A stretch of DNA of 64,000 bases from a virus. Every line of letters begins with the position of its first letter. Position 1 is the stretch's first letter. The notes below the pieces were generated by a model, which ran no database searches, was not told the origin of the DNA, and saw only the letters and a list, made by a program, of their open reading frames with translations. The translations under genes were made by a program, and so were the position numbers. Positions 50,376-63,784 of the stretch are shown here, piece after piece. The stretch lies in the IMG/VR virus record IMGVR_UViG_3300031857_000110. One strand, written 5' to 3'.

Positions 50376-50413
50376 AATAAGAGCTTGACAGACCACACTC
50401 AAGCTCTTATAAT
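50376..50413 (+). promoter_or_regulatory. consensus sigma70-like promoter TTGACA-N17-TATAAT embedded in perfect 11-bp inverted repeat ATAAGAGCTTG / CAAGCTCTTAT
   Basis: Read directly; same palindrome at 52148..52185. Confidence 0.65.
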
Positions 50414-50442
50414 GTTAAAGATGCCAACCTACCAATTCTACA

Positions 50443-50940
50443 ATGTCTAATCTTTTCGCCTGGAATGAAACCATTCAAAATCTTTACCCAGTTCAACCAA
50501 TTCCTACAGTTCAACAAATTCTAGATGAAACTTCTGTTGGTAATGGTTTCCATAAATTTGCAGTTGAAGGTGGATTTGTTCACCTCACCACTGAAGTTTT
50601 CCGTCTAGCACTAGAAGATGCTTATGATCCCACCATGAGGGATTGGCAATTATCTGTTAAATTATGGGTATCGGATAAGACGGCAGAAACAAATTATTGG
50701 GAAAGAAGGTTACACCAAGCACTTATGAATGCAAGTGATGCATTATCAGGTGTCCATCATATTTTCACACAAAGATTGAAACGTGGTGAATGTAAAATAG
50801 AAGCTCGAGATCTTGAGAATTTAATGGGTGATTATGAAGTTTCAGTTAAAATTCTACAAGACTATGCTAAATATATGGAAAATCTCGTTAAAGATAAGGT
50901 AGAAAAAATCATAAGCAACCCTTATCAATCAACTCCTTGA
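50443..50940 (+). CDS. hypothetical protein
   Basis: ORF downstream of promoter. Confidence 0.5.
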   Translation: MSNLFAWNETIQNLYPVQPIPTVQQILDETSVGNGFHKFAVEGGFVHLTTEVFRLALEDAYDPTMRDWQLSVKLWVSDKTAETNYWERRLHQALMNASDALSGVHHIFTQRLKRGECKIEARDLENLMGDYEVSVKILQDYAKYMENLVKDKVEKIISNPYQSTP

Positions 50941-50992
50941 CACTGCCAGCCCCTTGGCATATACTTAAAAGGTCACACAGAGGACTCCAACC

Positions 50993-51214
50993 ATGATCCA
51001 TGCATTTTTAACCACGGGCGCGTGCATTAGTGGTCATATTGGTGACCTTAACTTTAGAAACAAATTAAGGAATGAATCGTCAAGCGTCACGGAGATTCAA
51101 GCTGATGAAGATGAACTAGCTAGAGCATGTTCATTATTGGGAAGAAATCTTCCGCCGGTAAGATTTTACCATTTTGTTGGGGTTAATGCCCAAGAAATTG
51201 CAGCAAATTGGTAG
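50993..51214 (+). CDS. hypothetical protein
   Basis: ORF. Confidence 0.35.
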   Translation: MIHAFLTTGACISGHIGDLNFRNKLRNESSSVTEIQADEDELARACSLLGRNLPPVRFYHFVGVNAQEIAANW

Positions 51215-51359
51215 GAATAATAAATTGCTCAAAGAATTAGGAGTTTAATTCTCCTCCAAATAAACTTTCAGATGGTTTATTTGTTCTCGCTTAGTGTAAT
51301 TGAGGTTCCTTATTTGGAACCTCTACCTGAGCACATTAGTTTATCATCAAGGAGCCACA

Positions 51360-51548
51360 ATGACAACTGAAACATTTGAAATTCAAATTTTAGTTGACAA
51401 TCAATGGACTAATGATGCCTCTTATTTGGGGCATGGTTGTAAACAAAGCCTGAATAAATTTGATGGTTTAGACACAGCTCAATCAGCAATAGAAAGTTTG
51501 ATTGCTGTTGGGTTTGATGGCTCAAAATTAAGAGTAACAAGCCCGTAA
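51360..51548 (+). CDS. hypothetical protein
   Basis: ORF trimmed to an internal Met. Confidence 0.3.
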   Translation: MTTETFEIQILVDNQWTNDASYLGHGCKQSLNKFDGLDTAQSAIESLIAVGFDGSKLRVTSP

Positions 51549-51589
51549 TACCCATAAGCTTTACTAATCATTCCAACCACCAACTAATC

Positions 51590-51931
51590 ATGAAGATCAG
51601 CCAAGAAGCAAAGATTGTCAGACATCCAATGTCCATTTTGACAATTGACAGGAAAAATGGTATTGAAACAAGGGTTATCAGTCAAATGCCACAAGGAATT
51701 TATGTTAATGATCGCTTATATTCTTATGCTGAGGCGATCCGTAAAGTAAATCCACTTAATCAGTTACACTGGCCGTCAGATGTTCATACACATGTTCATA
51801 TGAATGCTGTAACTGCATTCCTAAAAACCTTTGAAGCTGCATGTCTTAAAAAAGATTACATCCTTAAAGAGATTATTGTTAATGGTAATGGGTATATCTT
51901 TAATTTTGACTTGGAAAATCAATCACTCTAA
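51590..51931 (+). CDS. hypothetical protein
   Basis: ORF. Confidence 0.4.
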   Translation: MKISQEAKIVRHPMSILTIDRKNGIETRVISQMPQGIYVNDRLYSYAEAIRKVNPLNQLHWPSDVHTHVHMNAVTAFLKTFEAACLKKDYILKEIIVNGNGYIFNFDLENQSL

Positions 51932-51934
51932 ATC

Positions 51935-52135
51935 ATGGCGCTTTTCAGTTTTCTTATTTCTGCATACCCCTATGTATGTTTCATGGTGTTCGGATTTTTT
52001 GTAGGAATTTCAACCTCCAATTGTGAGAGAAACCCAACTATATTTGAGAAATTAGTGCTCATTTCAACTTCTGCAATTTTGGCAATTTTATGGCCAATTG
52101 TATTAATTATATTTTTTTGGTTGGTTGATCCATAA
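51935..52135 (+). CDS. small two-TM membrane protein
   Basis: Two hydrophobic helices in 66 aa. Confidence 0.4.
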   Translation: MALFSFLISAYPYVCFMVFGFFVGISTSNCERNPTIFEKLVLISTSAILAILWPIVLIIFFWLVDP

Positions 52136-52147
52136 GCAACACTGATC

Positions 52148-52185
52148 AATAAGAGCTTGACAGACCACCCTCAAGCTCTTATAGT
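52148..52185 (+). promoter_or_regulatory. sigma70-like promoter TTGACA-N17-TATAGT within palindrome ATAAGAGCTTG/CAAGCTCTTAT
   Basis: Read directly. Confidence 0.6.
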
Positions 52186-52211
52186 AAGAAAGTCAACTTC
52201 AACCACACAAG

Positions 52212-52631
52212 ATGGATACCAACGATTTTTTCACACTTCTCGGACTTGAGCATCATCATGTAATGATAGGCTCTAGAGCTTATATGAATACGCCATATTC
52301 TGATTATGATTATATGTGTTATATTTTCGATAAAGACGAAATATTACAGACACTTAATAATCGTGGAATTAAGTATAGTGTAAATGCTCACGGGACTATT
52401 CAAATTCTTGTTAGTTTTTTTAAAACTTCAAAATTTGAAATTCCTCAAACCACTCAAATTCACATATGCTTTATTAAGGATTTTGTAGCATGGGAGAAAG
52501 CAACTGATTGTATGAAAATAGTTTCTAAAAAAACTGAACTATTTTCTAATTGGTCTAAAAAAGATAGAATTAGTCTTTTCTGTGATTTTGTTGTGTATTT
52601 TGGTGGAGACAGGCCAAAAAACTGCTATTAA
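52212..52631 (+). CDS. hypothetical protein
   Basis: ORF. Confidence 0.45.
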   Translation: MDTNDFFTLLGLEHHHVMIGSRAYMNTPYSDYDYMCYIFDKDEILQTLNNRGIKYSVNAHGTIQILVSFFKTSKFEIPQTTQIHICFIKDFVAWEKATDCMKIVSKKTELFSNWSKKDRISLFCDFVVYFGGDRPKNCY

Positions 52632-52722
52632 ATGGGGTTGATCCATAAGAAATCCTGATCAATGAGAGCTTGACAAACCACGCTCAAGCTCTTATAGTAA
52701 GAAAGTCAACCTCACTTGCACC

Positions 52723-52977
52723 ATGGACAACAAGAGCATTCAAGTCGGTCGGTTGTGGACAGCTTCCCTAGCATGGAAAGATGCTGCAGAAGTATATTTA
52801 ATTGCAGGAGATCTCAATAAGTATCGACACTGCAAGAAAGAACAGGCTGATCTTCTTTTGATGAGAGCAAAGATTCTTAAAGAGATTGCTGATGGAAATA
52901 ATTCTCCTGATTATGTCTGGAAAGCTAAGATTTCCACATCAGCAGTGCAATTGCCCATAAGCAACACTGATCAATAA
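52723..52977 (+). CDS. hypothetical protein
   Basis: ORF behind a promoter cassette at 52660. Confidence 0.45.
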   Translation: MDNKSIQVGRLWTASLAWKDAAEVYLIAGDLNKYRHCKKEQADLLLMRAKILKEIADGNNSPDYVWKAKISTSAVQLPISNTDQ

Positions 52978-53032
52978 GAGCTTGACAGAATCTCAAAAAT
53001 CCATTAGTTTACCTTCATCCGCAACACTGATC

Positions 53033-53275
53033 ATGAACAACAAGGAATTGTTTGAATCGCATTTGAACGAGGCATACATTGATTTATTTCAAAATGATGC
53101 AGACTATTCTTATGCAGCAGCCAGAAAAACTCCTGCTGAATTGGCATCTTTAATGACAGTTTCTTTAGCCAGGGGTGAAGCCAATTTGGAAGGTGAGGGT
53201 ATAACAAGAGCCTGCAAAGCTGTAGGAATAAAGAAAACCCGTAAAGCAATTAAAGAATTTTTGAATAAGCCATAA
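53033..53275 (+). CDS. hypothetical protein
   Basis: Start trimmed; the TTG at 52982 is the -35 box. Confidence 0.45.
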   Translation: MNNKELFESHLNEAYIDLFQNDADYSYAAARKTPAELASLMTVSLARGEANLEGEGITRACKAVGIKKTRKAIKEFLNKP

Positions 53276-53317
53276 AATCTAAAAGATAATTTTAGTCTTA
53301 ACCCATTCAACACTCCA

Positions 53318-53539
53318 ATGGAAAATCTTTTTGTCAACATCAACCGACGGTCTGATCCAGATTCACCTAAATGGGTTAGATTGAGTGAGATTCTTACATT
53401 TCATGATACAATTTTCGGTGTTAGAGTAATTTGCAAGGGAGGACATAAGTTTACCGGAACATTGAAATCAAAATTTCTAATGCATGTAATTGCAAAAACT
53501 ACAAATACTACATTGAATGATATTGACTATTCCATTTGA
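53318..53539 (+). CDS. hypothetical protein
   Basis: ORF. Confidence 0.4.
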   Translation: MENLFVNINRRSDPDSPKWVRLSEILTFHDTIFGVRVICKGGHKFTGTLKSKFLMHVIAKTTNTTLNDIDYSI

Positions 53540-53542
53540 TTA

Positions 53543-53806
53543 ATGAAAATCATTAAATTAAGACATCTTTCGCAAAACTCACTCATGAATTATTCAATAG
53601 GGCATTGGTATATGAAAGGTTGCCTTGCATGTTATAGAAATGCCTTTCTAAATGAAGAAATTTTTTATAACAAAGAGACTCTACTAATTTCTATTGAGAA
53701 TGTGAAAAATTCTCGTAATAGTTATATTACAGAAGAGGCATATCAAACTGTTTTGAGACATTTTGAGGCTGGACTTCTTCTTTTTGAATGTCAAAATAAA
53801 CCATAA
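53543..53806 (+). CDS. hypothetical protein
   Basis: ORF. Confidence 0.4.
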   Translation: MKIIKLRHLSQNSLMNYSIGHWYMKGCLACYRNAFLNEEIFYNKETLLISIENVKNSRNSYITEEAYQTVLRHFEAGLLLFECQNKP

Positions 53807-53890
53807 GCAACACTGATCATTCAATAGCTTGACAGCAGCTCAAAAACCCATTAACTTACTTTCATCCACATCAGGGAGGTTTCCCCGCTC

Positions 53891-54541
53891 ATGATTACTG
53901 AATCTGAAGTCAATTCTGCGGTTTATACGCTTCTGCGGTCTAAGAATCTTGAGCATCTTAATGCTCATTCGGGGCTTATTGCCAGGATCAGGAGAGAATG
54001 GAATTCTTTCAAGAAATCTGCAATAAGTCTAGGGTTTAACCCAGAAGAACACCGCTTAACTGCATACAATATTGCTGAAGGTGATCTATGGGATCATGCT
54101 GCACATGACTGGATTTTAACTAGAGAAGGTTGTGGGTGTGGTTTCTGGGATGGTGATTGGGAAAAGAATATGGGAGAAAAGCTAACCGAATTGTCCAAGA
54201 CTTTCGGGGAGTTGGATGTATATTCTGAACGGGGCTATGTTTATAGCGAGTTCCCATGTAATATCAATAAGATTGCAACTTATTGTTTTATTAAATATAA
54301 AAACTTCAGCCAACGCGGGGCCAGCCTCATTCAATTCCCACAGAAAAACGCAACTTCATATCTGGTTAAATTACCTGAGATTGATAAACACTGGAGAAGG
54401 ATTAACTGTAGATGTGTATCTATAGATGGTGGGTTTGAATTTATAGATTGGTGTCATGTGAAGGGAGAAAAAATTTGTCTAGGGAATATATTAGGTAGAA
54501 TTTATGTACCTGTAGATGATGTTGTTAAAGTTGAACTATAA
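53891..54541 (+). CDS. hypothetical protein, family B (paralog of 56882..57508)
   Basis: Alignable throughout: EVNSAVY...RIRREWNSFKKSAISLGFNPEEHR...DLWDHAAHDWIL...IATYCFIKYK...KLPEIDKHWRRI; GGGAGGTTTCCCC leader. Confidence 0.6.
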   Translation: MITESEVNSAVYTLLRSKNLEHLNAHSGLIARIRREWNSFKKSAISLGFNPEEHRLTAYNIAEGDLWDHAAHDWILTREGCGCGFWDGDWEKNMGEKLTELSKTFGELDVYSERGYVYSEFPCNINKIATYCFIKYKNFSQRGASLIQFPQKNATSYLVKLPEIDKHWRRINCRCVSIDGGFEFIDWCHVKGEKICLGNILGRIYVPVDDVVKVEL

Positions 54542-54619
54542 TGGATTCTAATCAATGGAGGCTTGACAGCGAGAGATAAACCCCTTACAGTAACAGAGTA
54601 ATCCACCACACTCAAAACA

Positions 54620-55156
54620 ATGTCAACAAAAAGAGAGCTTCAAAGTGAAATTGAAAGTTTGAAAAGAGACATAGATTGCATAACCAATAGAATTAAAGAA
54701 AGAGAAGAAGAATTATCTAAGTATTCAGCACCAGATCGCATTAGAGATGCTGATGTTGGTGAAACATTGGCAGATGGTTGTGTATTGATAGATTTTCTAC
54801 GTGGCAAAGACCGAGCATGGGCAATTCTAGGCGCACCCGTAGAAACCATTCAGTACACTACGCTTAAAGATATGGATAAAATTAAAAAAGAATTATCATT
54901 AGGCCCAGAATGGTTTCTACCTACACACCAAATTGCTAAAAGTATTTGCATTGATCCTTGCCATTTTGAACTTCTCCCGGTGGGTGAGTATTGGACATCT
55001 ATTTCTGAGAATGAATATATTCTCATTGCGGAGAATAACGCGCTTGTATTTGCCACCTTAAGATACGCGAATAACAACAATCTTTCTAGACTGGCTTGGT
55101 ATTGTAAGATTGTTGAGTTTAGTGTGCATCCATCATACGATTATTTACCTTATTGA
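54620..55156 (+). CDS. hypothetical protein
   Basis: ORF behind promoter 54563. Confidence 0.45.
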   Translation: MSTKRELQSEIESLKRDIDCITNRIKEREEELSKYSAPDRIRDADVGETLADGCVLIDFLRGKDRAWAILGAPVETIQYTTLKDMDKIKKELSLGPEWFLPTHQIAKSICIDPCHFELLPVGEYWTSISENEYILIAENNALVFATLRYANNNNLSRLAWYCKIVEFSVHPSYDYLPY

Positions 55157-55238
55157 TCTATAAGAACGACTTATCAATAAAAGCTTGACAAGCCATAATT
55201 CTTCCCCTATCATTAAAAAGTCTTCAACACTTGAATCA

Positions 55239-55532
55239 ATGACTGATCAAACTGCTCGCCAGCGTGCAATCCATGCAGCTAACATGCAATGGGCTGCACA
55301 CCTAAAGCGAACCGCTCAAAAAGCTGCTCAAGATGCAGATAAAGCTTCTCTAGCAGCCTCTCAAGCACATGACCGAGTAAACACTCTTCGTGCAGCATTA
55401 GCGGCTGCTCATGCTAATCTTCAAAGTTCAATAGCAGCAGCCATCACAACACAAGATATTTCAAATAATGCTAAGCTAAATGCCATAGATGCTCGTACAG
55501 ATTACCATACTTTTATGGATAGTATCAAATAA
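55239..55532 (+). CDS. Ala-rich coiled-coil protein (GC-rich)
   Basis: Start trimmed; the TTG at 55185 is the -35 box. Confidence 0.45.
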   Translation: MTDQTARQRAIHAANMQWAAHLKRTAQKAAQDADKASLAASQAHDRVNTLRAALAAAHANLQSSIAAAITTQDISNNAKLNAIDARTDYHTFMDSIK

Positions 55533-55539
55533 TTGTATC

Positions 55540-55695
55540 ATGAAAAACGGTTCATATTGGTCGGATAAAAGAGACATTCCAAGCGGAAAATATGGTAAGA
55601 CTAAGCTGCCTGACTGTGAATGTACTGGTATATTTACATGTAGAGTCTGTTTAGATTATAGTATTATTAGGGACAAAATCTTTCCAAACTCATGA
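55540..55695 (+). CDS. small Cys-rich protein (51 aa)
   Basis: CECTGIFTCRVC; ATGA overlap with the next gene. Confidence 0.3.
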   Translation: MKNGSYWSDKRDIPSGKYGKTKLPDCECTGIFTCRVCLDYSIIRDKIFPNS

Positions 55696-56180
55696 AAAGT
55701 TTTCACCAACAACTGGCAACATTCAAAGCTCTTGACAAACAAAAAAGAGAGAATCCTTTTCGTAAGGAATGGATAAATTCACAGTCTCTCCATTATACAG
55801 AAAGATGGAAAAAAGAAGCTGATATTATTAAAAGGTATGTTGAATTATCACGAGGAAAGTTTCCTGATTTTGTTCTAGAGAATTTTTATTGCTTAAAATA
55901 TATGATAACAGGGGAAGCTTTTAATCTTGGCTGGGGTTTTGAATGTAATAATGTAATTTATTGGAAAGATACAAAAAGAGAGATAATGGCTGAATGGATG
56001 GATAGATATAATCACACATGCGATTATCTAGGACCAATTAAAAGAGTAACCATGCTGGAAAGTATGCTGTATAATAGATTCAATTTTATAGGGCCAATTG
56101 AACGAAAAATCTTGCATGAAAGTATGCGGAGTGACTCATATGGAATTCTAATGCCTCAAGGTCTTGACAAAAGCACTTGA
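55692..56180 (+). CDS. hypothetical protein; 3' end contains the next promoter
   Basis: ORF. Confidence 0.45.
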   Translation: MKSFHQQLATFKALDKQKRENPFRKEWINSQSLHYTERWKKEADIIKRYVELSRGKFPDFVLENFYCLKYMITGEAFNLGWGFECNNVIYWKDTKREIMAEWMDRYNHTCDYLGPIKRVTMLESMLYNRFNFIGPIERKILHESMRSDSYGILMPQGLDKST

Positions 56181-56219
56181 GACATTCTAGTATAAACAAG
56201 TAATCCACAGAGGGTTCCC

Positions 56220-56726
56220 ATGGCTCCTATTCACTTCCACCGCGACAATAATTTGAAAGAAGTAATTGTTGCAACAAATAAAATCAATAAAGTATGTAAT
56301 ATTATTCAACCGCAGATCATAGAAACTTTAAGACCTTTCAGGGGCAAAAAAATAATTAAGGTAACTCCTTATCGTACTCTAACGAGTAAAGTTTTTGAAG
56401 TTCTCAATCCAGTTTTAGAAGAATACCGAAAAACAATGGGAGGTATGTATATCTTGGATTATCAATCTAATTATAGTCTGTCTTTGAAAGTTCAGGTGCC
56501 GTATAAATTGCATTATGATGATGGGGGGTTTCAAGGCAGTTTGTCTCATTTTCTTTATTTGGGTTTTTTGGAAAACAGTACTTACCTTAAGGACGAAGAT
56601 CTAAAGTTATGTAAGAGTAAGGAAGATTATGATTTTGATGAAATTAAGTTGAAAATGGTGCAGCTTAAACAGTTGGAAGAACAATTTGATGCATTAAAGA
56701 GTGAATTATCGCGCTTCTTGCGATAA
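56220..56726 (+). CDS. hypothetical protein
   Basis: ORF behind promoter 56164 with GAGGGTTCCC leader. Confidence 0.5.
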   Translation: MAPIHFHRDNNLKEVIVATNKINKVCNIIQPQIIETLRPFRGKKIIKVTPYRTLTSKVFEVLNPVLEEYRKTMGGMYILDYQSNYSLSLKVQVPYKLHYDDGGFQGSLSHFLYLGFLENSTYLKDEDLKLCKSKEDYDFDEIKLKMVQLKQLEEQFDALKSELSRFLR

Positions 56727-56751
56727 GGAATAGACCATATTACTCCCCGGT

Positions 56752-56816
56752 TTGCTAGTCTTACTGGGGATTTTTTGTGTTTAATGTTTTAATGTGACAC
56801 TTTAAGAACTGGCACA
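56752..56816 (+). repeat. about 65-nt reiterated element GCTAGTCTTACTGGGGATTTTTTGTG(T/C)TTAATGTTTTAATGTGACACTTTAAGAACTGGCACA, copy 1 (second copy at 57907..57971)
   Basis: Near-identical copies read directly. Confidence 0.85.
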
Positions 56817-56881
56817 TTCTTAACCACCTTTCCGCCCTTACCTGCTGTAGGATAAACAAGCAAACAAAGGGAGGTTCCCCC

Positions 56882-57508
56882 GTGACTACACAATCTGAAG
56901 TTAATGCTGCAATTGCAGCATTGTATATTTCCGATGAATTTGATGATAAAAAGGTTACTAAATCTCTAAACTCTCGTATAAAAAGAGAATGGTTATCATT
57001 CAAAGCTTCTGCTATAAATATAGGTTTTGACCCTGAAAAACATAGAACATTTACGCTAGATAAATCTAAAGAAGACTTATGGGGTTATGTTGCACATGAC
57101 TGGATAATGATTCGTAATTTGGGATTTTTAGACGGCCATTGGCAAAAAGATAAGGCAGAGAAATTAGCAGAAATTGCAAAATCTTTTGGCCGGTTGGAAG
57201 TATTTCAACAGGGTGATTATATCTTTCCACGTTCAGATGAGTATATCAATAAGATTGCAACTTACTGCTTTCTTAAGTATAAAGAAGTGTCACACTCACA
57301 TTTGAATAAAGATGGTTATGGTAAGACTTCATCGCCATATATGATTAAGTTACCCGAGATTGATAATCAATGGAGGAGAATATATTCTTTATGCTATTCT
57401 AATACATCAACCGAAATCATTACAATAAAAGGTGAAACATTATTATTGGGGAATCTATTATCGGATTTTTGTATAGCAGTTGGAGATACAGTTAAGATTA
57501 ATTTGTAG
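56882..57508 (+). CDS. hypothetical protein, family B (GTG start)
   Basis: Paralog of 53891..54541. Confidence 0.6.
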   Translation: MTTQSEVNAAIAALYISDEFDDKKVTKSLNSRIKREWLSFKASAINIGFDPEKHRTFTLDKSKEDLWGYVAHDWIMIRNLGFLDGHWQKDKAEKLAEIAKSFGRLEVFQQGDYIFPRSDEYINKIATYCFLKYKEVSHSHLNKDGYGKTSSPYMIKLPEIDNQWRRIYSLCYSNTSTEIITIKGETLLLGNLLSDFCIAVGDTVKINL

Positions 57509-57603
57509 GTATAACAAGCTCTCATAAGAGATGCTAATGCCTTAAGGGTTGACAGATCCCCTTAAGACATTCTAGTATAAACAAGTAATCCACAGAGGTT
57601 TTT

Positions 57604-57906
57604 ATGCACTCCCAACATCCAGCAATTATTGAATGTTTGAATAGTTTCAATTTTGAAAATGTTCACAAAATAATGGTACTTCTAGATTGGAAATATGCTA
57701 TGCCTGCACCACCATATTATGCTGAGGTTCCTAATATAGAACGGCTGAAGGAATGCGCAGAATATCTATTGCGTCTATCTGTGCAGCATAGATGTGATTG
57801 GAGTAGTGGTGGATTTGAAGCGAAATATATTGTCGGGTGGGATGGTTTTGTTAAGCTTCGCTTATGCTTCGTGGCAGTTGATTGTCAGGTGAATTGTAAA
57901 GAATAA
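57604..57906 (+). CDS. hypothetical protein
   Basis: ORF. Confidence 0.45.
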   Translation: MHSQHPAIIECLNSFNFENVHKIMVLLDWKYAMPAPPYYAEVPNIERLKECAEYLLRLSVQHRCDWSSGGFEAKYIVGWDGFVKLRLCFVAVDCQVNCKE

Positions 57907-58031
57907 GCTAGTCTTACTGGGGATTTTTTGTGCTTAATGTTTTAATGTGACACTTTAAGAACTGGCACAGTCTAGAGAACCATCCAGCCCTTAGCTGCTT
58001 TATGATATGGAGGTATTCATCCAGGTATTTC

Positions 58032-58328
58032 ATGGCTACGCCAGCATTCAAAACAAAAAAAGGTGACCTTACAGCTTATGCCTTGGCTTGTGGATATATT
58101 GAAAAGGTGGAAATTGGAGATGATATAATAGTTCTGCAAGCTTTGGATTGCCCTAATGTATATCTCGTTTCGTTGTGGGAAGGTAAATATAATTCCCATG
58201 ATAAAGATTATCGCTTGCTAACTGATGCACGAAGAGAGTTTAAGAAGCTCGTCTCTATGAAAAAACGTGCTGACACTTTAAGAACTGGCACGTTCTCAAC
58301 CACCTTTCCGCCCTTAGCTGCTGTATGA
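58032..58328 (+). CDS. hypothetical protein (start uncertain; C-terminal codons run through a reiterated leader)
   Basis: ORF. Confidence 0.35.
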   Translation: MATPAFKTKKGDLTAYALACGYIEKVEIGDDIIVLQALDCPNVYLVSLWEGKYNSHDKDYRLLTDARREFKKLVSMKKRADTLRTGTFSTTFPPLAAV

Positions 58329-58358
58329 TGACAAGGTAAACAAAGGGAGGTTCCCACC

Positions 58359-58874
58359 ATGCCCATCACAATCTATGAATTCGGTGAATTGTCAGATGAA
58401 GCAAAAAGCATTGCATTAAATACCTTTCGTTATATCAATGTTGACTGTAACTGGCATGAAACTGTATGCGAAGATGCAGAAGTAATCGGATTAAAGATTA
58501 CAGAATTTGATATTGATAGAAATACCATAAAGGGACATTTGAAACAAGATTTTTTGGATGTATGTAGGCTAATAAGAAAAAATCACGGTAAAGATACGGA
58601 AACAAGAGACACCGCCAAAAAGTATCTTAAAGAATATATTGCAGAATACTATCGTTATAGGGGCAATGATACACAAAATTTACCAGATTTGCTGAAAGGC
58701 TTCCAATGTGAAGATGAAGCAAAGGATATAGAGATAGATTTTGCCCTCGCACTTTTGGAGGATTATTTCATCATGTTGAGAAGAGAATATGAATATCTCA
58801 CATCTGATGAAGCAGTTAAAGAATCAATTGAATTAAATGAGATGAAATTTCTAGAGAATGGTAATGTGACATAA
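58359..58874 (+). CDS. hypothetical protein
   Basis: AAGGGAGGTTCCCACC leader. Confidence 0.5.
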   Translation: MPITIYEFGELSDEAKSIALNTFRYINVDCNWHETVCEDAEVIGLKITEFDIDRNTIKGHLKQDFLDVCRLIRKNHGKDTETRDTAKKYLKEYIAEYYRYRGNDTQNLPDLLKGFQCEDEAKDIEIDFALALLEDYFIMLRREYEYLTSDEAVKESIELNEMKFLENGNVT

Positions 58875-58954
58875 GCAGTGCTTATCAATAAAGGCTTGAC
58901 AATCCATATTCTTACCTGTAGTATTCTTTCATCCACATCAGGGAGGTTCCCACT

Positions 58955-59497
58955 ATGTCTCAAATTCGTCTCACCGGCCTTGATCTATTGAAGCATCATA
59001 AAAGTCAACATGAAACAAGGCACTTAAAGGTGATGTTTGCTGGATATATTAAAGATGGATTTAAGCCATCATATACAGAATACTATTCAGCATTACTTCC
59101 ACTAATGTTATGGAATAAAAAGTATGAAAATACAATGAACAATGGAGGTTCTAAAATTGTTCAAAGTCTAGTGACACATCTGGTGGCGGGTGCAGATTAT
59201 CAGAAAGAAAATGATCGGGTGTGTTATTTGAGTAATGGTGATGCTGCTATTTACTATTATGGGCAGTTAATATGCATTGTAAATTTTAATAATAATTATA
59301 TAACGATTCAGCCCAATTTAATGAGAACAAAATCCACAAAAGAACGTTTGAATAGAATTTTGATGAAATTCACTGGATGTCAACTATTTCAAAAAGAAAA
59401 GAAGTGGTATGTTTATGATCCAGAAAGAGATCAAGATAGTTTAGTGCCTGAGGGAGCTTGCTTCAGAGTAGATTTTATCGGCTCCTGTCCAGAATAG
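58955..59497 (+). CDS. hypothetical protein, family C
   Basis: Paralog of 47936..48400. Confidence 0.5.
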   Translation: MSQIRLTGLDLLKHHKSQHETRHLKVMFAGYIKDGFKPSYTEYYSALLPLMLWNKKYENTMNNGGSKIVQSLVTHLVAGADYQKENDRVCYLSNGDAAIYYYGQLICIVNFNNNYITIQPNLMRTKSTKERLNRILMKFTGCQLFQKEKKWYVYDPERDQDSLVPEGACFRVDFIGSCPE

Positions 59498-59587
59498 GAC
59501 ATAAGAGATACTAATGCCTTAAGTGATTGACAGATCCCCTTAAGGCATTCTAAGATAATCAAGTAAACCAAGGGAGGTTCCCCAATC

Positions 59588-60004
59588 ATGGCTCAAACTT
59601 TCAACAATTGGTCTGAAGTTCCTGCATCAATTGAAGCAAAGATCCGAAAAATTTGGAATGGTGACGGAGCTTCAACATACGAAAAAAGTCATGATGAAAA
59701 CGGTGAAGAAATTACAGTCTATAAATTATCAGACTACAAAGTGATTTTCAATACTGATTTTTTGACCGATGCTCAGAAAATTAAATTCTTTGAGTTGGCA
59801 TGGACCTATAGATTAAATCTTGCAGACTTTCTGCATAATTTAACATTTGAACCTGAATGTGTAAGGATATATGATGAAGTATATCATATCCCCGGAATTG
59901 TTGTAGGAACCTGGCCACATTGCAACCTATATGGTGGGATGGATGAAAACGGACATATTCATACTCAATTATGGTTCAGCTTTCTTAAATCTTATCAGAG
60001 CTAA
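59588..60004 (+). CDS. hypothetical protein
   Basis: Promoter plus leader. Confidence 0.5.
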   Translation: MAQTFNNWSEVPASIEAKIRKIWNGDGASTYEKSHDENGEEITVYKLSDYKVIFNTDFLTDAQKIKFFELAWTYRLNLADFLHNLTFEPECVRIYDEVYHIPGIVVGTWPHCNLYGGMDENGHIHTQLWFSFLKSYQS

Positions 60005-60106
60005 AAACATGTAGGCCTATAAGAGATACTAATACCTTAAGGTCTTGACAAAAGCCCTTAAGGTATTTTAGTATAATCAAGTAAACACATCAGGGAGGTT
60101 CCCACC

Positions 60107-60439
60107 ATGATTGATTCTTTATATCAAGATGGAGAGATTAGATTTTTGAGGCATTTTTCTACAAGAGGAGGTAGATATATTTCAAATAGGCTAAATCTAA
60201 AGGGAAAAAATGCAGAAAAAATTAGCAATAGTCTGTCAGGTTTCTTCTGGAATTTACATGCTGCAATTGTGGTTAAAAATTTGAATGAAATGAAAGCCAA
60301 TAAAATTACTAATCCATATGTAAATGGCTGCAAAATGATATATGAAGAAATTCTTGAGAATCCGCAATATATGTTTCTTCCAAAATGGGTTAAGGACGAT
60401 TTAGTTATTGCTGGTAAATTTTTGAGTTACGAAAAATAA
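60107..60439 (+). CDS. hypothetical protein
   Basis: Promoter plus leader. Confidence 0.5.
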   Translation: MIDSLYQDGEIRFLRHFSTRGGRYISNRLNLKGKNAEKISNSLSGFFWNLHAAIVVKNLNEMKANKITNPYVNGCKMIYEEILENPQYMFLPKWVKDDLVIAGKFLSYEK

Positions 60440-60547
60440 GACAATCTTCCATCTCTAGGGTGACACTTTAAGAACCGGCACACCCTAGAGAACCTTCTGG
60501 CCCTTAGCTGCTGTAAAATAAGCAAGTAAACCACAAGGGAGGTTCCT

Positions 60548-60889
60548 TTGACTGCAACAATCTATCAACAATTACTTGAGCACTCTAAAGGTTTAATAGA
60601 GATTCATGAAACTGATTTAACCATTCACGATCAAAACAGAATAAAGACATTTGAGCCAGGTTCAAAATGGTTATGGGTTTGTTATCAGTGTGGAACATAT
60701 TTAACAAAATGGGAGAGTAAATTCACATCAGAACTTTTATATTATATCGTGGAGAGGAATGGCTGTCCAGATTGCAAAGTCTTCATCATTGAATGTAATG
60801 AAGAATTAAATGGAAATGTTATAGAGAAACAAGCAGCAGAATTGTGGATTCAAAAGAAATATGAGAATTCCTTATCAATAAAGGCTTGA
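60548..60889 (+). CDS. zinc-ribbon protein (CYQCG...CPDCK), TTG start
   Basis: Leader AAGGGAGGTTCC then TTG. Confidence 0.4.
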   Translation: MTATIYQQLLEHSKGLIEIHETDLTIHDQNRIKTFEPGSKWLWVCYQCGTYLTKWESKFTSELLYYIVERNGCPDCKVFIIECNEELNGNVIEKQAAELWIQKKYENSLSIKA

Positions 60890-60941
60890 CAAACCATACT
60901 CTTACCTGTAGTATTCTTTCACTCACATCAGAGAGGTTCTC

Positions 60942-61346
60942 ATGTTTTTAGGTAAACATCAAAAAGGTCTCATTACTTATCTCGTAAAACGGAAAAATTA
61001 CACTGGCATTTGTGGCCAAGATATGAGAGATGTTCTTAATAGGCTAGTAAAAAGAGGTATAATTAAGTATAAAAAAATTGAGTATAATTATGGAACATAT
61101 GAATATGAAGTAACATTAACTATTCCAGATATTCATTACATTACATCTGAAGAAGCTAATAATATGAATAGTTTTCAGCGATATAAAGAGCTTAGGGGTG
61201 AACCTTATAGAGAAGGATTCTTTTTTATTACAAACCCACAATTACTTTCTAATAAGACACATTATTCACGACAACATGAAGAATTTGGACCATTCTCTAG
61301 TATAGAAGAAGCTGTTGTATTTTATGCAAGTAATAGAAAATTTTAA
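60942..61346 (+). CDS. hypothetical protein
   Basis: Promoter 60886 plus leader. Confidence 0.5.
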   Translation: MFLGKHQKGLITYLVKRKNYTGICGQDMRDVLNRLVKRGIIKYKKIEYNYGTYEYEVTLTIPDIHYITSEEANNMNSFQRYKELRGEPYREGFFFITNPQLLSNKTHYSRQHEEFGPFSSIEEAVVFYASNRKF

Positions 61347-61530
61347 TAAAATGTGTTTTTAATCGTTTTTATTGATAATCATTCTCAATAAGGTGTTTTA
61401 AGTGTTTTATTGATCTTATTGATAATCATTCTCAATAAGGTGTTTTAAGTATATTGAAGGTCTTAAATGTTTTATTGATAATCATTCTCAATAAGGTATT
61501 TTAGGTATTTTAGGTATTTTAAGTGTCTTA
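61347..61530. repeat. three copies of an iteron-like palindrome TTATTGATAATCATTCTCAATAAGGT(G/A)TTTTA(A/G)GT plus GGTATTTTA tandem units
   Basis: Perfect inverted repeat TTATTGA/TCAATAA inside each of 3 direct repeats; followed at 61538..61639 by the distant inverted repeat ATCTTAGCGG ... CCGCTAAGAT. Confidence 0.85.
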
Positions 61531-61658
61531 TTGGTCTGATGATCTTAGCGGACTAGGACCACACACTCTAAGACACTCAAGGACAGAAGAAAAACCGGCA
61601 CAATAAAACCCACAGAACGATCATAACCGCTAAGATGTAAAAGTCATTCAATCATTCC

Positions 61659-61874
61659 ATGGCCACCCACAACATTTTTCCAGCCTACAAAGGGCTAGTT
61701 AAAGTGTCCAAACTGCGCAAAAAGATTGGCCAACAAAGATATACAATCTCAGCAAAAATCACCCCAGACTTTACATTTGAAACAATAATTCCAGCATATA
61801 ACAGAGAGGATGCAATTTTCCGTGCTACAGCATACTTTCCAAATGGAAGATTCGTCAAAGTGAATAACAAATGA
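61659..61874 (+). CDS. hypothetical protein
   Basis: ORF. Confidence 0.4.
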   Translation: MATHNIFPAYKGLVKVSKLRKKIGQQRYTISAKITPDFTFETIIPAYNREDAIFRATAYFPNGRFVKVNNK

Positions 61875-61962
61875 GACTGTGACACTTTAAGAACTGGCAT
61901 GTTCTCAACCACCTTTCCGCCTTTAGCTGTAGGATATGGAGGCAAACAAAGGGAGGTTTCCC

Positions 61963-62184
61963 GTGAAATTGATCAGTAATCACGAGGATAACATTAAAAG
62001 GGAGCTTTATACAATTGAAAATAATGGGGATAAATTTACACTCATTTGGTATGTTAATCCAACTACAAAAACAATTATTGATGTTGAACTGAGAGATGCA
62101 TCCGGGGTATCTGTTTTTGATCCTGCCTTACTTGAGGAGATTGAAACCTTTGTAGTTGATACACTTATTGAACGTCAATCTTAA
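61963..62184 (+). CDS. hypothetical protein (GTG start after GGGAGGTTTCCC leader)
   Basis: Leader homology. Confidence 0.4.
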   Translation: MKLISNHEDNIKRELYTIENNGDKFTLIWYVNPTTKTIIDVELRDASGVSVFDPALLEEIETFVVDTLIERQS

Positions 62185-62264
62185 GATAAGCATTTCTTAT
62201 CATAGACTCTAGAGTGCTCAAAGTGTGCTAGAGTCTTAACTATAAATCAAGGGAGGTTCCCGCA

Positions 62265-62648
62265 ATGGCTAAAGAAACCACATCACAGATTGTTTCAAAG
62301 TATAAGTGTCTCATTGTAAACATTTTAGCAGGAGCTAAAATAACCAAACCGACGGGTCTTGAGCTTATGGGGCAATTGAGTAATTTGTGGTCAGATGAAG
62401 AATTTAGCAGCTTGTCATTATATGCAAAGGAAGAACTATTTGAATACTCAGACAATAAAAGGATACAGCTTACTGATGAATATACAGTATCACTTTACAC
62501 TGATGATAATGGCAATAAAAGTATATCAAACAAAACCGAATTTGCATGTGAGCCATCCATTTATTGGTATGAAGTCAAAGAGATATGCTCAAATGATGGA
62601 ACAATGGTAATAATCAAAACACCTACAGATAAAGTATATCTTGAGTAA
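62265..62648 (+). CDS. hypothetical protein
   Basis: Leader GGGAGGTTCCCGCA then ATG. Confidence 0.5.
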   Translation: MAKETTSQIVSKYKCLIVNILAGAKITKPTGLELMGQLSNLWSDEEFSSLSLYAKEELFEYSDNKRIQLTDEYTVSLYTDDNGNKSISNKTEFACEPSIYWYEVKEICSNDGTMVIIKTPTDKVYLE

Positions 62649-62756
62649 GTCTTATAGGTATATTAAGCTCTCATAAGAGATGCTAATGCCTTAAGTGATT
62701 GACAGATCCCCTTAAGGCATTCTAGTATAGTCAAGTAAACCAAAGGGAGGTTCCCC

Positions 62757-62927
62757 ATGGCTAAAGAAAGTTTCAGGGAAAAGATCATCGGCTTGGCTAT
62801 AGGTTGTGATTATACACATGATGACTCCTGCGCAACATGGGAATCAATAGCACGGGAGCTGATTGCTCAGATGAGCGAACAAGATTGCCAGGATTTCTAT
62901 GATTATTTCATGGACAATTGCATGTAA
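62757..62927 (+). CDS. small protein (56 aa, below ORF-track cutoff) starting MAKES like its upstream neighbour
   Basis: Promoter 62699 plus leader AAAGGGAGGTTCCCC then ATG. Confidence 0.4.
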   Translation: MAKESFREKIIGLAIGCDYTHDDSCATWESIARELIAQMSEQDCQDFYDYFMDNCM

Positions 62928-62969
62928 CTGATAAGCTCCAATCTTTCCACCAACACCGCTTTTTTCACC

Positions 62970-63569
62970 ATGGCTAATTTGATTGATTCTGGAATTGACT
63001 ACGGAATGGGACGGACTAATGTTGATATGGATAATGGGATCCGTTACGGCTTCATTCCCGCTAATGATCTTGCATCCCACGCATGGGATACTATCATGAA
63101 CGACGGTGAAGATTTAGACTATACGGAAGCAATTGAAAATTTGAAAGATGAATTAGCTAGAACGATAAAAAGCACAGTGGAAGACTATGATCCCCGTTTC
63201 GACTGCAAACAAGCAGCAGAGGATATAGTGGATGCAATGGAATTTATTCTAGAGTCTAGCGGAGATTGCACAAGGTACAAATACGAAAATAAAGGGTTGG
63301 AATTTTCTACGTTATCCGATGGCGATTTAGTAGTGATAAAATCCCCGTACTTTACCTACTGCGGCCACTGTTCCCCTTGCGCGCCTGGTGGAGGTTATCT
63401 TAAGTCTGGGGGATCTGTAAAGACCTACTGTCTTGGACCGGAATGGTTTGACGAGAATTCCCCTATACCCTACGTTTGCTATAGAGTGTCAGACGGATCC
63501 CCCTTGTCTCCTCATGACTACTTGCATCCACAAGACGGGCTAGTTTTAACTGTTTCAATAGAACCTTAA
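62970..63569 (+). CDS. hypothetical protein (Cys-rich C-terminus)
   Basis: ORF. Confidence 0.45.
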   Translation: MANLIDSGIDYGMGRTNVDMDNGIRYGFIPANDLASHAWDTIMNDGEDLDYTEAIENLKDELARTIKSTVEDYDPRFDCKQAAEDIVDAMEFILESSGDCTRYKYENKGLEFSTLSDGDLVVIKSPYFTYCGHCSPCAPGGGYLKSGGSVKTYCLGPEWFDENSPIPYVCYRVSDGSPLSPHDYLHPQDGLVLTVSIEP

Positions 63570-63784
63570 AAGAATAAAGGAAATAAGGCAACCAAAATCT
63601 ATTAAGAGACTTCAATAAGCGATGGAATAATTCTAGTATTTGATTGCAGATACTCTGCTCATTATATCAATCCTTGTGGCTTTTAGGTATATCAGGCTCC
63701 CATAAGGTATTCTTATCATTCAAAGCTTGACAAGCCATAATTTTAGTCTTATTGTTCCTTTGTTCACTCATTCAGGTTTCAATC

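Follow-up and report, generated by a model that had tools for sequence, protein, structure and literature searches.

PeSLs have been defined, and their mechanism described, for T4-type phages (PMC2839356, PMC4122927), and in T4 recombination patches of <50 bp suffice (PMC2839356). The repeated cassettes described here match, in mechanism too, these PeSL/PmSL "mobile regulatory cassettes", which occur in the hyperplastic regions of other T4-type phages. They were found in a 64,000-nucleotide stretch of viral DNA (the window) from a phage of ~250 kb, whose relatives, judged from the helicase (closest matches in B23/B3, 56% amino-acid identity), appear to be the Kyanoviridae phages B3 and B23; B23 is assigned to Kyanoviridae, and its annotation includes T4-like baseplate genes. 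The array of small genes begins past the conserved helicase gene and, in an identical metagenome contig, runs on to ~67.2 kb. Gene order in B23 and Syn9 is helicase, small genes, baseplate, and the helicase flank is common to the relatives, whereas array content differs between them.

The initial annotation had listed 21 TTGACA hexamers as promoters, and all 21 were present on the plus strand, with 48875 corrected to 48876. The hexamer was not enriched in the window (63 occurrences vs. 62.6 expected) and a loose sigma-70 scan gave a weak excess (74 sites vs. 56.7 ± 7.6 in shuffles); 22 of the 27 plus-strand sites of the form TTGAC[AT]-N15-19-TAnnnT fell in 44-64 kb, and the whole minus strand held 6. 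The listed sites were located 21-33 nt upstream of start codons and lay within repeats of 50-100 nt that form families. A point missed by the initial annotation is that the predicted promoters are not isolated hexamers but belong, with the leader, to repeated composite cassettes of 80-140 nt and of three types (A or A2, B and C), in which an inverted repeat or a terminator is combined with a promoter, the common leader and a Shine-Dalgarno site, and among which repeat families D1-D14 were found (Table 1). In types A/A2 and B the promoter is of the host sigma-70 type and close to consensus (TTGACA, 17-18 nt, TAnnnT), with the inverted repeat before the -35 box in type A and around it in A2 and B. 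A further five genes, likewise missed, are predicted to be served by another kind of promoter, one without TTGACA; it belongs to a new element, the type C cassette, built on the core 22-bp palindrome GTGACACTTTAAGAACTGGCAC, which is preceded by a canonical intrinsic terminator and followed after 29-32 nt by a -10 box, the -35 box being absent. The common leader ends types B, C and some type A cassettes. Inverted-repeat energies ranged from -12 to -22 kcal/mol (z -3 to -7), and the type B repeats contained two compensatory pairs, with a covariation score reached in only 4 of 500 shuffles; the type A stem-loops, by contrast, were of 5 bp only and energetically not significant, which counts against the cassette explanation. 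Because the A2 and B hairpins have no U-tracts, a terminator function is doubtful for them; an action at the level of DNA is one alternative.

Table 1. Coordinates of the cassettes and array genes; IR, inverted repeat.
Feature	Coordinates	Strand	Details
Upstream continuation of cassette system	43989..48929	+	outside reported range; genes among its type A cassettes include paralogues 44068/45762/46258
Upstream type A cassettes	43989-44067, 44801-44877, 46183-46257	+	
Upstream type A cassettes	47901-47983, 48398-48476, 48851-48929	+	
Type A2	50360..50442	+	TTGACA 50385, 17-nt spacer, TATAAT; upstream gene's stop codon within CATAAG; 12-bp IR ATAAGAGCTTGA/TCAAGCTCTTAT around -35 box, -15.0 kcal/mol, z -6.1
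Type A	50911..50992	+	ATAAG-N5-CTTAT, TTGACA 50937, 17-nt spacer, TATACT; small IR TGCCA/TGGCA inside spacer
Type A2	52132..52211	+	TTGACA 52157, 17-nt spacer, TATAGT; 12-bp IR around -35, -15.1 kcal/mol
Type A2	52645..52722	+	TTGACA 52670, 17-nt spacer, TATAGT; IR around -35, -15.3 kcal/mol
Type A	52957..53032	+	TTGACA 52982, 17-nt spacer, TAGTTT
Type A	53804..53890	+	TTGACA 53829, 17-nt spacer, TAACTT; leader variant TTCATCCACATCAGGGAGGTTTCC at end
Type A-like	54538..54619	+	TTGACA 54563, 17-nt spacer, TACAGT; without Shine-Dalgarno site
Type A	55160..55238	+	TTGACA 55185, 17-nt spacer, TATCAT; without Shine-Dalgarno site; 92% identity to cassette at 48421 (family D11)
Type B	56137..56219	+	TTGACA 56164, 18-nt spacer, TAGTAT, degenerate leader CAGAGGGTTCCC (D5, D8); IR ATGCCTCAAG/CTTGAGACAT around TTGACA, -12.4 kcal/mol
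Type C	56741..56881	+	intrinsic terminator CCCCGG..CTGGGG + T6 (56741-56778), 22-mer 56794-56815, 32 nt, TAGGAT, leader AAACAAAGGGAGGTTCCC, GTG start (D4, D7)
Type B	57520..57603	+	TTGACA 57549 in IR, 18-nt spacer, TAGTAT, degenerate leader; -15.9 kcal/mol
Type C	57907..58031	+	terminator remnant, 22-mer 57947-57968, 32 nt, TATGAT; left repeat of ORF58032 module
Type C without terminator	58270..58358	+	22-mer 58270-58291, 32 nt, TATGAT, leader; right repeat of ORF58032 module; overlaps final ~20 codons of ORF 58032-58328
Type A	58871..58954	+	TTGACA 58896, 17-nt spacer, TAGTAT, leader CATCCACATCAGGGAGGTTCCC (D6)
Type B	59500..59587	+	TTGACA 59527, 18-nt spacer, TAAGAT, leader; 11-bp IR AATGCCTTAAG/CTTAAGGCATT around TTGACA, -15.9 kcal/mol
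Type B	60018..60106	+	TTGACA 60045, then leader; IR -21.6 kcal/mol with compensatory G>A / C>T change
Type C	60451..60547	+	22-mer 60460-60481 within 11-bp IR TCTCTAGGGTG/CACCCTAGAGA, 32 nt, TAAAAT, leader, TTG start
Type A	60861..60941	+	TTGACA 60886, 17-nt spacer, TAGTAT, leader with 2 mismatches AGAGAGGTTCTC (D6)
Type C	61879..61962	+	22-mer 61879-61900 (last base T), 29 nt, TAGGAT, leader, GTG start
Leader copy AAATCAAGGGAGGTTCCCGCA	62243..62264	+	no recognisable -35/-10 pair; TATAAAT directly upstream
Type B	62672..62756	+	TTGACA 62699 in 11-bp IR, 18-nt spacer, TAGTAT, leader; -19.8 kcal/mol
Type A	63702..63784	+	TTGACA 63727, 17-nt spacer, TATTGT
Array, 31 small genes	50443..64000	+	51-216 aa; from ORF list and start choice
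Array genes	50443-50940, 50993-51214, 51360-51548, 51590-51931, 51935-52135, 52212-52631, 52723-52977, 53033-53275	+	
Array genes	53318-53539, 53543-53806, 53891-54541, 54620-55156, 55239-55532, 55540-55695, 55692-56180, 56220-56726	+	
Array genes	56882-57508, 57604-57906, 58032-58328, 58359-58874, 58955-59497, 59588-60004, 60107-60439, 60548-60889	+	
Array genes	60942-61346, 61659-61874, 61963-62184, 62265-62648, 62757-62927, 62970-63569	+	
Last array gene	63785 onward	+	cut by window end

The array itself was real, and its description as small, mostly individually promoted genes that have promoters of host type and share an unusually strong leader for ribosome binding held up, but the counts had been overstated. 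Instead of about 35 genes there were 30 complete genes and one cut by the window end, and instead of each having its own strong promoter, 21 of the 31 had a cassette of their own (16 with TTGACA-17/18-TAnnnT and 5 with the different promoter); the ten without one (51360, 51590, 51935, 53318, 53543, 55540, 55692, 61659, 62265 and 62970) count against the cassette explanation. The leader AGGGAGGTTCCC, said to precede nearly every gene from 53.8 kb, preceded 11 of 21, plus two degenerate copies (56220, 57604): ten copies at no more than one mismatch lay between 53873 and 62755 and another, at 60930, had two mismatches. At up to two mismatches the window as a whole held 12 matches, a number reached in none of 100 shuffles (mean 1.66). 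Within this ~25-nt leader lies a 9-nt Shine-Dalgarno site, AAGGGAGGT, of a kind that the rest of the genome rarely uses; Shine-Dalgarno-like sites preceded ~6 of 82 genes at 0-48 kb vs. 8 of 14 at 56-64 kb.

Two of the proposed non-ATG starts were supported, GTG at 56882 because the paralogue alignment starts from residue 1 and TTG at 60548 because a PHROG match runs from residue 1, while for GTG at 61963 there is an alternative in-frame ATG at 61936. Local paralogue families were confirmed, with family B (53891/56882) at 43% identity (E 1e-58). Family C was upheld for the pair 47984/58955 (E 4e-18); the Kyano_Gp96 domain was above the Pfam cutoff in 58955 and 63785 and weak, below the cutoff, in 47984. 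The proposed "MAKE-start pair" 62265/62757 proved not to be paralogous (no blastp match between the two), and the common N-terminus is cassette DNA extending into the first codons. All 31 genes resembled the long genes of this phage in codon usage, by what is a weak test. Pfam gave no match for 29 of the 30 complete array proteins, six array proteins had PHROG matches of unknown function, tblastn among 50,697 phage genomes found relatives of one array family only, no array protein had a sequence relative in the PDB, and the fold of the one that was modelled had no match there.

The type C palindrome was found well beyond this phage. Five copies of the 22-mer were present in the window (0 expected), and an exact 20-mer of it occurred in 13 IMG/VR contigs whose flanking sequences are unrelated, followed by TAnnnT 27-34 nt downstream in 7 of 9 distinct contexts. 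Genome matches to the 22-mer numbered 85, and among 50,697 phage records the matches listed with at least 70% query cover were all in cyanophages. A Cyano-1/Yfr2 sRNA gene began 38-50 nt from the palindrome in 9 of 16 cyanobacterial loci, and by this comparison the type C cassette appears to reuse a control element that host cyanobacteria hold upstream of Yfr2 sRNA genes. Three observations count against the cassette explanation: the palindrome is slightly asymmetric, and the -10 box is found on one side of it in host genomes but on the other in phages; Acidobacteriota, a group said to have no PlmA-type regulator, also commonly have the palindrome; and the first 100 kb of Syn9 held only one or two weak copies.

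Comparison of repeats and of a relative further showed the cassettes to be recombination junctions at which genes are added, removed and re-paired, a feature missed by the initial annotation. Four cassettes (63727, 64770, 64174 and 65152) form a 2x2 set of reciprocal chimeras joined at the -35 box, the cassette at 63702..63784 being one parent of those at 64174 and 64770, outside the window, and the end of ORF 58032 falls inside a cassette. In the relative L115 (~91% identical), a single hybrid type C cassette replaces the window's cassette-ORF58032-cassette, so that one ORF-plus-cassette module by which the two differ is bounded precisely by two cassette repeats; the crossover is within the 22-mer. 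Two more indels in L115, of 1.5 and 6.6 kb, each adjoined a cassette on one side; that L115 was the one sufficiently close relative found, and that two of its three indels were not cassette-to-cassette, one being at a 7-nt microhomology and one ending in a gene, count against the cassette explanation.

That crossover, the only cassette-to-cassette event seen, is also what would be expected if the 22-mer, instead of being a promoter element, were chiefly the place where a site-specific or homing-type enzyme recombines and moves gene cassettes, as are the identical 20-mer in unrelated phage contexts and the tandem arrays of the palindrome in Mic1. We consider this very unlikely, since general homologous recombination at 22-100-nt repeats is enough to explain the ORF58032-module event and the distance from 22-mer to -10 box is fixed at 29-32 nt in phages; the same spacing in hosts, before Yfr2 sRNA genes on the chromosome and before genes of Acidobacteriota, argues for a function in transcription. 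It is likewise unlikely, if slightly less so, that the leader serves beyond its Shine-Dalgarno role as an operator common to the whole gene set, at which a RegA-type translational repressor, or a RegB-like nuclease that cuts GGAG, would exert post-transcriptional control. T4 RegB cleaves GGAG within early Shine-Dalgarno sites, the conserved stretch CAAGTAAAC(C)AAAGGGAGGTTCCC exceeds the length that ribosome pairing needs, and the leader is confined to the array in a genome otherwise poor in such sites, but its identity is equally accounted for by common descent and cassette recombination, of which chimeras exist. Leader structure was not significant past a 3-bp GGG/CCC clamp, and no regA- or regB-like gene happened to be noticed in the window.

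An early host-takeover or anti-defence island, in which the cassettes only fire many small effectors right after infection and incidentally owe their repetition to selection for strong early promoters, is a possibility that we hold tentatively and that is compatible with, not exclusive of, the cassette explanation. The near-consensus host-type promoters and very strong ribosome-binding site would suit it, as would the small, phage-specific ORFans of the array and the cREC_REC (cyclic-phosphate processing) domain protein and pentapeptide-repeat protein encoded directly upstream; the region also resembles the SPO1 host-takeover module and the early regions of T4. However, no array product matched a known host-shutoff or anti-defence family (Pfam, PDB sequences and one modelled fold), and host-like promoters reportedly drive middle, not early, genes in T4-like cyanophages, so that "early" is no safe default. 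Selection for promoter strength also leaves unexplained the identical 50-100-nt flanks, the chimeric cassettes and the module-sized indels at cassette repeats.

The region is thus probably best read as a hyperplastic, ORFan-rich part of a T4-like cyanophage genome in which two thirds of the small genes form expression modules complete in themselves, with one of the three repeated cassettes at the head of each. All that is said of promoter use, start sites, timing and termination is deduced from sequence. Host RNA polymerase would start ~7 nt past each -10 box and produce short mono- or bicistronic mRNAs from the cassettes, the hairpins and terminators would insulate neighbouring modules, and the strong leader would give high translation, with type C promoters depending on a host dimeric regulator that would bind the palindrome.

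The array appears best explained, from its sequence, as a cyanophage version of the PeSL/PmSL (promoter-early/-middle stem-loop) system of mobile regulatory cassettes, and hence as belonging to a known kind. The initial annotation had described about 35 small genes, each behind its own promoter; our count came to 31, of which 16 had a sigma-70-type cassette, 5 had a type C cassette and 10 were without a promoter of their own. The TTGACA hexamers listed in that description were all present in the window. TTGACA as such was not enriched there (63 found versus 62.6 expected); the listed sites were parts of conserved 50-100-nt repeat families, and most had a TAnnnT box at 17-18 nt and a start codon 21-33 nt away. 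At least 27 cassettes (repeated units with an inverted repeat or terminator, promoter, leader and Shine-Dalgarno site) were found within 43.9-64 kb, with more as far as 67.2 kb.

Cassette types, mosaic members and other features by position (nt)
Feature	Position	Description
Type A		cATAAG-N5-CTTATCAwTmAArGCTTGACA, 17 nt, TAnnnT; upstream gene's stop codon inside
Type A2	50385, 52157, 52670	12-bp perfect inverted repeat ATAAGAGCTTGA/TCAAGCTCTTAT spanning the -35 box and ending at the -10 box
Type B	56164, 57549, 59527, 60045, 62699, more beyond the window	10-17-bp inverted repeat with TTGACA in the loop
Type C	56794, 57947, 58270, 60460, 61879	intrinsic terminator (full copies), GTGACACTTTAAGAACTGGCAC, 29-32 nt, TA(G/T/A)(G/A)AT, leader
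A-5' + A-3'	63727	mosaic member
B-5' + A-3'	64770	mosaic member
A-5' + B-3'	64174	mosaic member
B-5' + B-3'	65152	mosaic member
Cassette identity over codons 1-6	62757-62777 (window), 65778-65798 (extension, contig L106)	ATGGCTAAAGAAAGTTTC
Region upstream of gene 62265	62228-62264	leader, TATAAAT
23-bp near-palindrome	61369-61391, 61416-61438, 61472-61494	TTATTGATAATCATTCTCAATAA, three exact copies; gene-free gap 61347-61658
Four genes absent from L115	46385-47891	
Helicase and 13 small genes replaced in L115	48870-55454	
HNH endonuclease	42540-43115	
cREC_REC protein	45409-45765	
Weak pentapeptide-repeat match	48477-48869	15-nt tandem repeats at 48562-48636
tRNA-Leu(TAA) gene and type A-like cassette	2291-2440	
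Tyrosyl-tRNA-synthetase-like protein and RNA ligase	16775-17923, 32689-34233	
Mic1 palindrome array	~20000-26100 (locus coordinates)	L015, MN013189

The 5-bp stem of type A was not energetically significant, and several type A units had no Shine-Dalgarno site. Folding energies for the inverted repeats were -15 kcal/mol in type A2 (z approximately -5 to -6) and -12 to -22 kcal/mol in type B; two positions of the type B stem showed compensatory changes among nine copies, with a covariation score equalled in 4 of 500 shuffles, which lends modest support to conservation of the predicted stem. A canonical hairpin with a T-run, from which termination is predicted, occurred only in type C, the A2 and B hairpins being without U-tracts. 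The core of type C is a 22-bp palindrome (the 22-mer) in place of the -35 box, and the 29-32 nt following it held no -35 match. An Rfam search of 43-64 kb at a permissive threshold gave chance-level matches only, neither the cassettes nor the 22-mer corresponding to a described RNA family.

Types B and C had a common leader, CAAGTAAAC(C)AAAGGGAGGTTCCC, a variant of which, CATCCACATCAGGGAGGTTCCC, was found in several type A units; different promoter halves have thus been joined to one leader. The proposal that nearly every gene carries a near-identical leader held for 11 genes, with degenerate copies at 2 more and none at the rest. As AGGGAGGTTCCC, the leader was present in 10 copies with at most one mismatch between 53873 and 62755, and window-wide there were 12 matches at up to two mismatches against 1.66 expected. 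Because Shine-Dalgarno sites were rare elsewhere in the window (approximately 6 of 82 genes in 0-48 kb versus 8 of 14 in 56-64 kb), the leader appears to be a special property of these cassettes.

Upstream of gene 62265 the leader was present without a -35/-10 pair, and directly ahead of it stood TATAAAT, the core of T4-type late promoters. Gene 61659, itself without a recognisable promoter, was preceded by the three 23-bp repeats; their core, TGATAATCATTCTCA, matched 14 of 15 positions of the 7-1-7 Fur-box consensus. Among other possibilities, the repeats may serve as an operator responsive to iron or as an origin-like set of iterons.

Four neighbouring cassettes formed a complete 2x2 mosaic of type A and type B halves joined at the -35 hexamer. 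Cassette sequence also extended into coding regions at both ends of genes: the last ~20 codons of ORF 58032-58328 were encoded by a type C cassette, and cassette identity reached codons 1-6 of otherwise unrelated genes in the window and its extension. Cassette crossovers can therefore fall inside the N-terminus, which explains the two MAKE-start genes that had been paired as paralogues; the pair was not real, the DNA identity of the cassette simply running past the start codon. Paralogue families B (53891/56882) and C (47984/58955/63785), by comparison, were borne out, the Kyano_Gp96 domain of family C scoring above the Pfam cutoff in 58955 and 63785, with no more than a weak match in 47984.

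The sole relative compared for indels was L115, a 35-kb contig found through its 81%-identical homologue of gp58359 (the product of gene 58359), whose DNA was 87-92% identical to the window with three structural changes. Where the window has a terminator and 22-mer, ORF58032, another 22-mer and gene 58359 in succession, L115 had one hybrid cassette, its left half corresponding to the first window copy and its right half to the second; a 323-bp module of one ORF and one cassette was thus gained or lost via a crossover inside the 22-mer. The four genes absent from L115 left a junction of 7-nt microhomology directly abutting a type A cassette, and the helicase with its 13 small genes was represented by ~180 nt holding another palindrome variant, then 32 nt and then TATGAT. 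While the ORF58032 indel lay between two 22-mers, the other two abutted a cassette on one side. An origin of the cassettes from MITEs or transposons was rejected, as the sequence showed neither a transposase nor a target duplication.

The exact 20-mer of the palindrome occurred in 13 IMG/VR contigs with unrelated flanks, usually just past a stop codon. A TAnnnT box lay 27-34 nt downstream in 7 of 9 distinct phage contexts and in 6 of 7 copies in the window's phage (chance ~19%). Among the matches listed for sequenced phages, all those covering at least 70% of the query were cyanophages, including S-PM2, P-RSM4, S-TIM4, ACG-2014f, MED4-213, S-RIM12/14, S-CRM01, S-SRM01 and B3/B23; in S-PM2 a copy of the variant GTGCCACTTTTTGAACTGGCAC lay between genes at 20115, in a stretch of small hypothetical genes beside the tRNA cluster. 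The Microcystis siphovirus Mic1 gave 21 blast places and >40 copies at up to four mismatches, many of them in tandem. These copies alternated with TTGACA boxes at a 58/62-bp period, and single copies elsewhere in Mic1 preceded, at 16 nt, a TTGACA-17-CATAAT promoter whose leader was conserved (ACATAAGCAAAAAACAGGAG), an arrangement which indicates that the siphovirus has its own cassette system on the same element. Matches in Escherichia and Krischvirus (RB49) were 16-nt half matches inside a gene and were attributed to chance.

The sigma-54 promoter consensus is TGGCAC-N5-TTGC; the 22-mer did not fit this sequence or the consensus sequences for NtcA, CRP, LexA, CIRCE, HLR1 or the Pho box, and the NrdR box was fitted by the Mic1 variant (14/16) and by none of the others. 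Nor could the 22-mer be identified with the 'novel early element' of Doron et al. 2016, the first 100 kb of Syn9 containing only 1-2 weak copies.

When GTGMCACTTTNNNAACTGKCAC was scanned over one genome per bacterial species, 85 loci were recovered against an estimated ~17 expected by chance, almost all of them cyanobacterial or acidobacterial, with several in each genome. Of the 16 cyanobacterial loci, 9 had a Cyano-1 (Yfr2) sRNA gene that started 38-50 nt from the motif, reading outward, in the order motif, 30-31 nt, -10 box, ~7 nt and GTGTGTGAGGAG..., and the same motif/-10 arrangement stood ahead of signal-peptide-protein genes in Acidobacteriota. The acidobacterial palindromes, several per genome in Pyrinomonadaceae, Terracidiphilus and Bryobacterales (e.g. 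L019, L029, L030 and L064 among scan loci L018-L097), lay ~30 nt upstream of the -10 box of genes starting with signal-peptide-like sequences, and look like an undescribed regulon with an operator common to cyanobacterial Yfr2 promoters. Positions 7 and 16 make the palindrome slightly asymmetric; the -10 box was on the GTGACAC-TTT side in 48 of 80 host copies and on the AAC-TGGCAC side in 13 of 16 phage copies.

Yfr2 promoters in Synechocystis are very strong and light-stimulated (PMC2662882). In marine picocyanobacteria yfr2 is activated via CGRE1, a 21-22-nt palindrome bound by the GntR/PlmA-type PMM1637, which was described as GTTG/GTTA...CAAC/TAAC with a GTG(T)ACAC centre and a start at -55 to -57 and was stated to be restricted to marine strains, phage appearing in that paper only in the reference list (Lambrecht et al. 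2018, PMC6191309). The 22-mer is similarly a 21-22-nt palindrome with GTGnCAC, placed at about -35 to -65 from the yfr2 transcription starts, and its promoters, like those of CGRE1, have a -10 box and no good -35 box, the palindrome being an activator site in the CGRE1 system and a predicted one here. It differs in having GTGnCA(C) at both ends and in starting ~8-10 nt further upstream, near -64 to -66 from the inferred start site, so that it departs from the published CGRE1 in both sequence and position as these are described in writing. Given the common position class, length and GTGnCAC together with this misfit to a written description rather than to logos, we treat the 22-mer as a related or sister element; it could also be a shifted or overlapping definition of CGRE1, from which it is set apart by the written description only. 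The abundance of the motif in Acidobacteriota calls for caution over a PlmA-type regulator as the candidate activator. A literature search for 'CGRE1' returned no phage-related paper, and the literature searches run gave no paper linking the 22-bp palindrome to phages.

The long ORFs of the window were all on the + strand, and PHROG matches included a 2044-aa tail fibre and Dda/UvrD-type helicases. For the helicase at 48930-50363 the closest relatives (56% amino-acid identity) were in Synechococcus phages B23 and B3, 244-kb phages of the Kyanoviridae; B23 is annotated with the T4-like baseplate genes gp25/gp6/gp7, and in both B23 and Syn9 the homologous helicase is followed by a series of small genes, with baseplate genes after these. 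An IMG/VR relative, L104, had the helicase and the region upstream of it in common with the window and nothing downstream. Because the helicase flank is shared and the downstream content is not, the region is reported here as a lineage-specific hyperplastic segment of a T4-like cyanophage. An assembly artefact was ruled out, since several independent metagenome assemblies from several samples carried the window sequence at 99.9-100% identity. The exact gp58359 protein was found on a 249,543-bp contig, and one identical contig added 4.9 kb beyond the window, in which the array ended at ~67.2 kb and was followed by converging minus-strand genes. Compared at the nucleotide level with 50,697 phage genomes, the array gave no match, and searches of IMG/VR with exact cassette or leader patterns gave no true relatives, the pattern match L103 (50% GC) being a chance match.

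Elsewhere in the window we observed an RNA ligase (PHROG E 2e-53), a tyrosyl-tRNA-synthetase-like protein (E 8e-77) and a tRNA-Leu(TAA) gene followed directly by a type A-like cassette (ATAAAGAATCCTTATCAAAAACACCTTGACA, 17 nt, TATCGT). tRNA-Leu genes are also present in B23, S-PM2 and Syn9, with the anticodon annotated as TAA only in B23 and S-PM2. Directly upstream of the array were a cREC_REC (cyclic-phosphate processing receiver) domain protein (E 9e-26), an HNH endonuclease and a pentapeptide-repeat match below the Pfam cutoff, in a gene holding tandem repeats.

Among the 30 complete array proteins, one had a Pfam domain (Kyano_Gp96) and the other 29 had no Pfam match, six had PHROG matches, all of unknown function, and none had a sequence relative in the PDB. 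Relatives in sequenced phages were found by tblastn only for the N-domain of family B (in cyanophages, Gordonia phages, a Klebsiella phage and Brevundimonas jumbo phages) and for nothing else in the array. The family of gp58359 (58359-58874) is rare, a search of 5.8 billion proteins yielding 23 homologues; the model of gp58359 was very confident (pLDDT 95.9), matched no PDB fold and resembled only uncharacterised phage proteins, several from large myoviruses, the look-alikes including proteins of Salmonella phage 35, Escherichia phage vB_EcoM_bov22_2, Lactobacillus phage Satyr and Bacillus phage phiAGATE. From these database results, the gp58359 homologues and the confident fold, the genes look real. 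No anti-defence inhibitor was recognised among the 30 proteins by Pfam or PDB sequence searches, in libraries with few anti-defence families, and the roles in host takeover or anti-defence proposed in the initial annotation are neither supported nor excluded; the closest pointer to either, and a hint at most, is the pair of cREC_REC and pentapeptide-repeat proteins just upstream.

The SPO1 host-takeover module and the T4 early clusters consist of dense small genes of unknown function with strong host-type promoters and strong ribosome-binding sites, and the array resembles them in gene density, promoter type and ribosome-binding sites. Those clusters, however, are defined by measured early transcription and demonstrated host-shutoff activities, whereas the array is described here from its sequence; nor are they described with long identical cassettes like those of the array. 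Repeated composite cassettes are a feature of the PeSL/PmSL regions of RB49/phi1, PST/T4 and nt-1/KVP40 (Arbiol et al. 2010, PMC2839356; Comeau et al. 2014, PMC4122927), with which the array has in common a T4-type genome, a hyperplastic region and small non-conserved ORFans. As in PeSLs, a stem-loop or terminator, a sigma-70-like promoter, a Shine-Dalgarno site and a start codon follow in composite order and in many copies, and indels lie at cassettes (in the one relative, L115), as where crossovers between neighbouring PeSL units explain indels and replacements among close relatives. PmSLs carry an activator box, the Mot box, and a -10 box instead of a -35 box, and type C carries the 22-mer and a -10 box instead.

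The array also departs from these systems: the A2 and B inverted repeats enclose the -35 box whereas the PeSL stem lies upstream of it, type C has as its predicted activator box an element of the host where PmSLs have the MotA box of the phage, conservation of the leader far exceeds that in published PeSLs, and the host is a cyanobacterium. S-PM2, the one cyanophage examined for PeSLs, has an 'ORFanage' that is likewise a dispensable, variable ORFan block in a T4-like cyanophage; few PeSLs were reported in it, and its authors rejected the PeSL mechanism for the block (PMC4503421). It thus differs from the array in having few promoter/stem-loop units. As a cyanophage version of PeSL/PmSL, the array would be notable for its stems enclosing the -35 box, for the strong conservation of a super-Shine-Dalgarno leader in a genome where such sites are seldom used, and for one class of cassette based on a promoter element of the host that lies upstream of Yfr2 genes and is widespread in cyanophages.

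We advance tentatively, and with rather less than even confidence, the proposal that unrelated cyanophage lineages (marine and freshwater T4-like myoviruses, and Mic1) captured the host Yfr2 activator palindrome as a portable promoter cassette without a -35 box. ORFan expression would then depend on a stress-responsive dimeric regulator of the host, of PlmA/GntR type or other, that responds to light and nitrogen status; the 22-bp element would double as a crossover point, and the tandem arrays of Mic1 might titrate the host factor.

The array extends the PeSL mechanism to cyanophages and provides one of few concrete accounts of how large phages acquire and shuffle ORFans, with unusually clear sequence-level evidence, namely the reciprocal chimeras and the indel of a single module flanked by two repeats. 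The cassettes are compact promoter/RBS units, predicted to be strong, for cyanobacterial expression, and the 22-mer motif is a marker for cyanophage contigs. The 22-bp palindrome also offers a precise, testable connection between gene expression in the phage and a regulatory circuit of its host. Were the element activator-dependent, some of the phage's accessory genes would be tuned to the light or nitrogen status of the host, an arrangement similar to that proposed for cyanophage NtcA sites.
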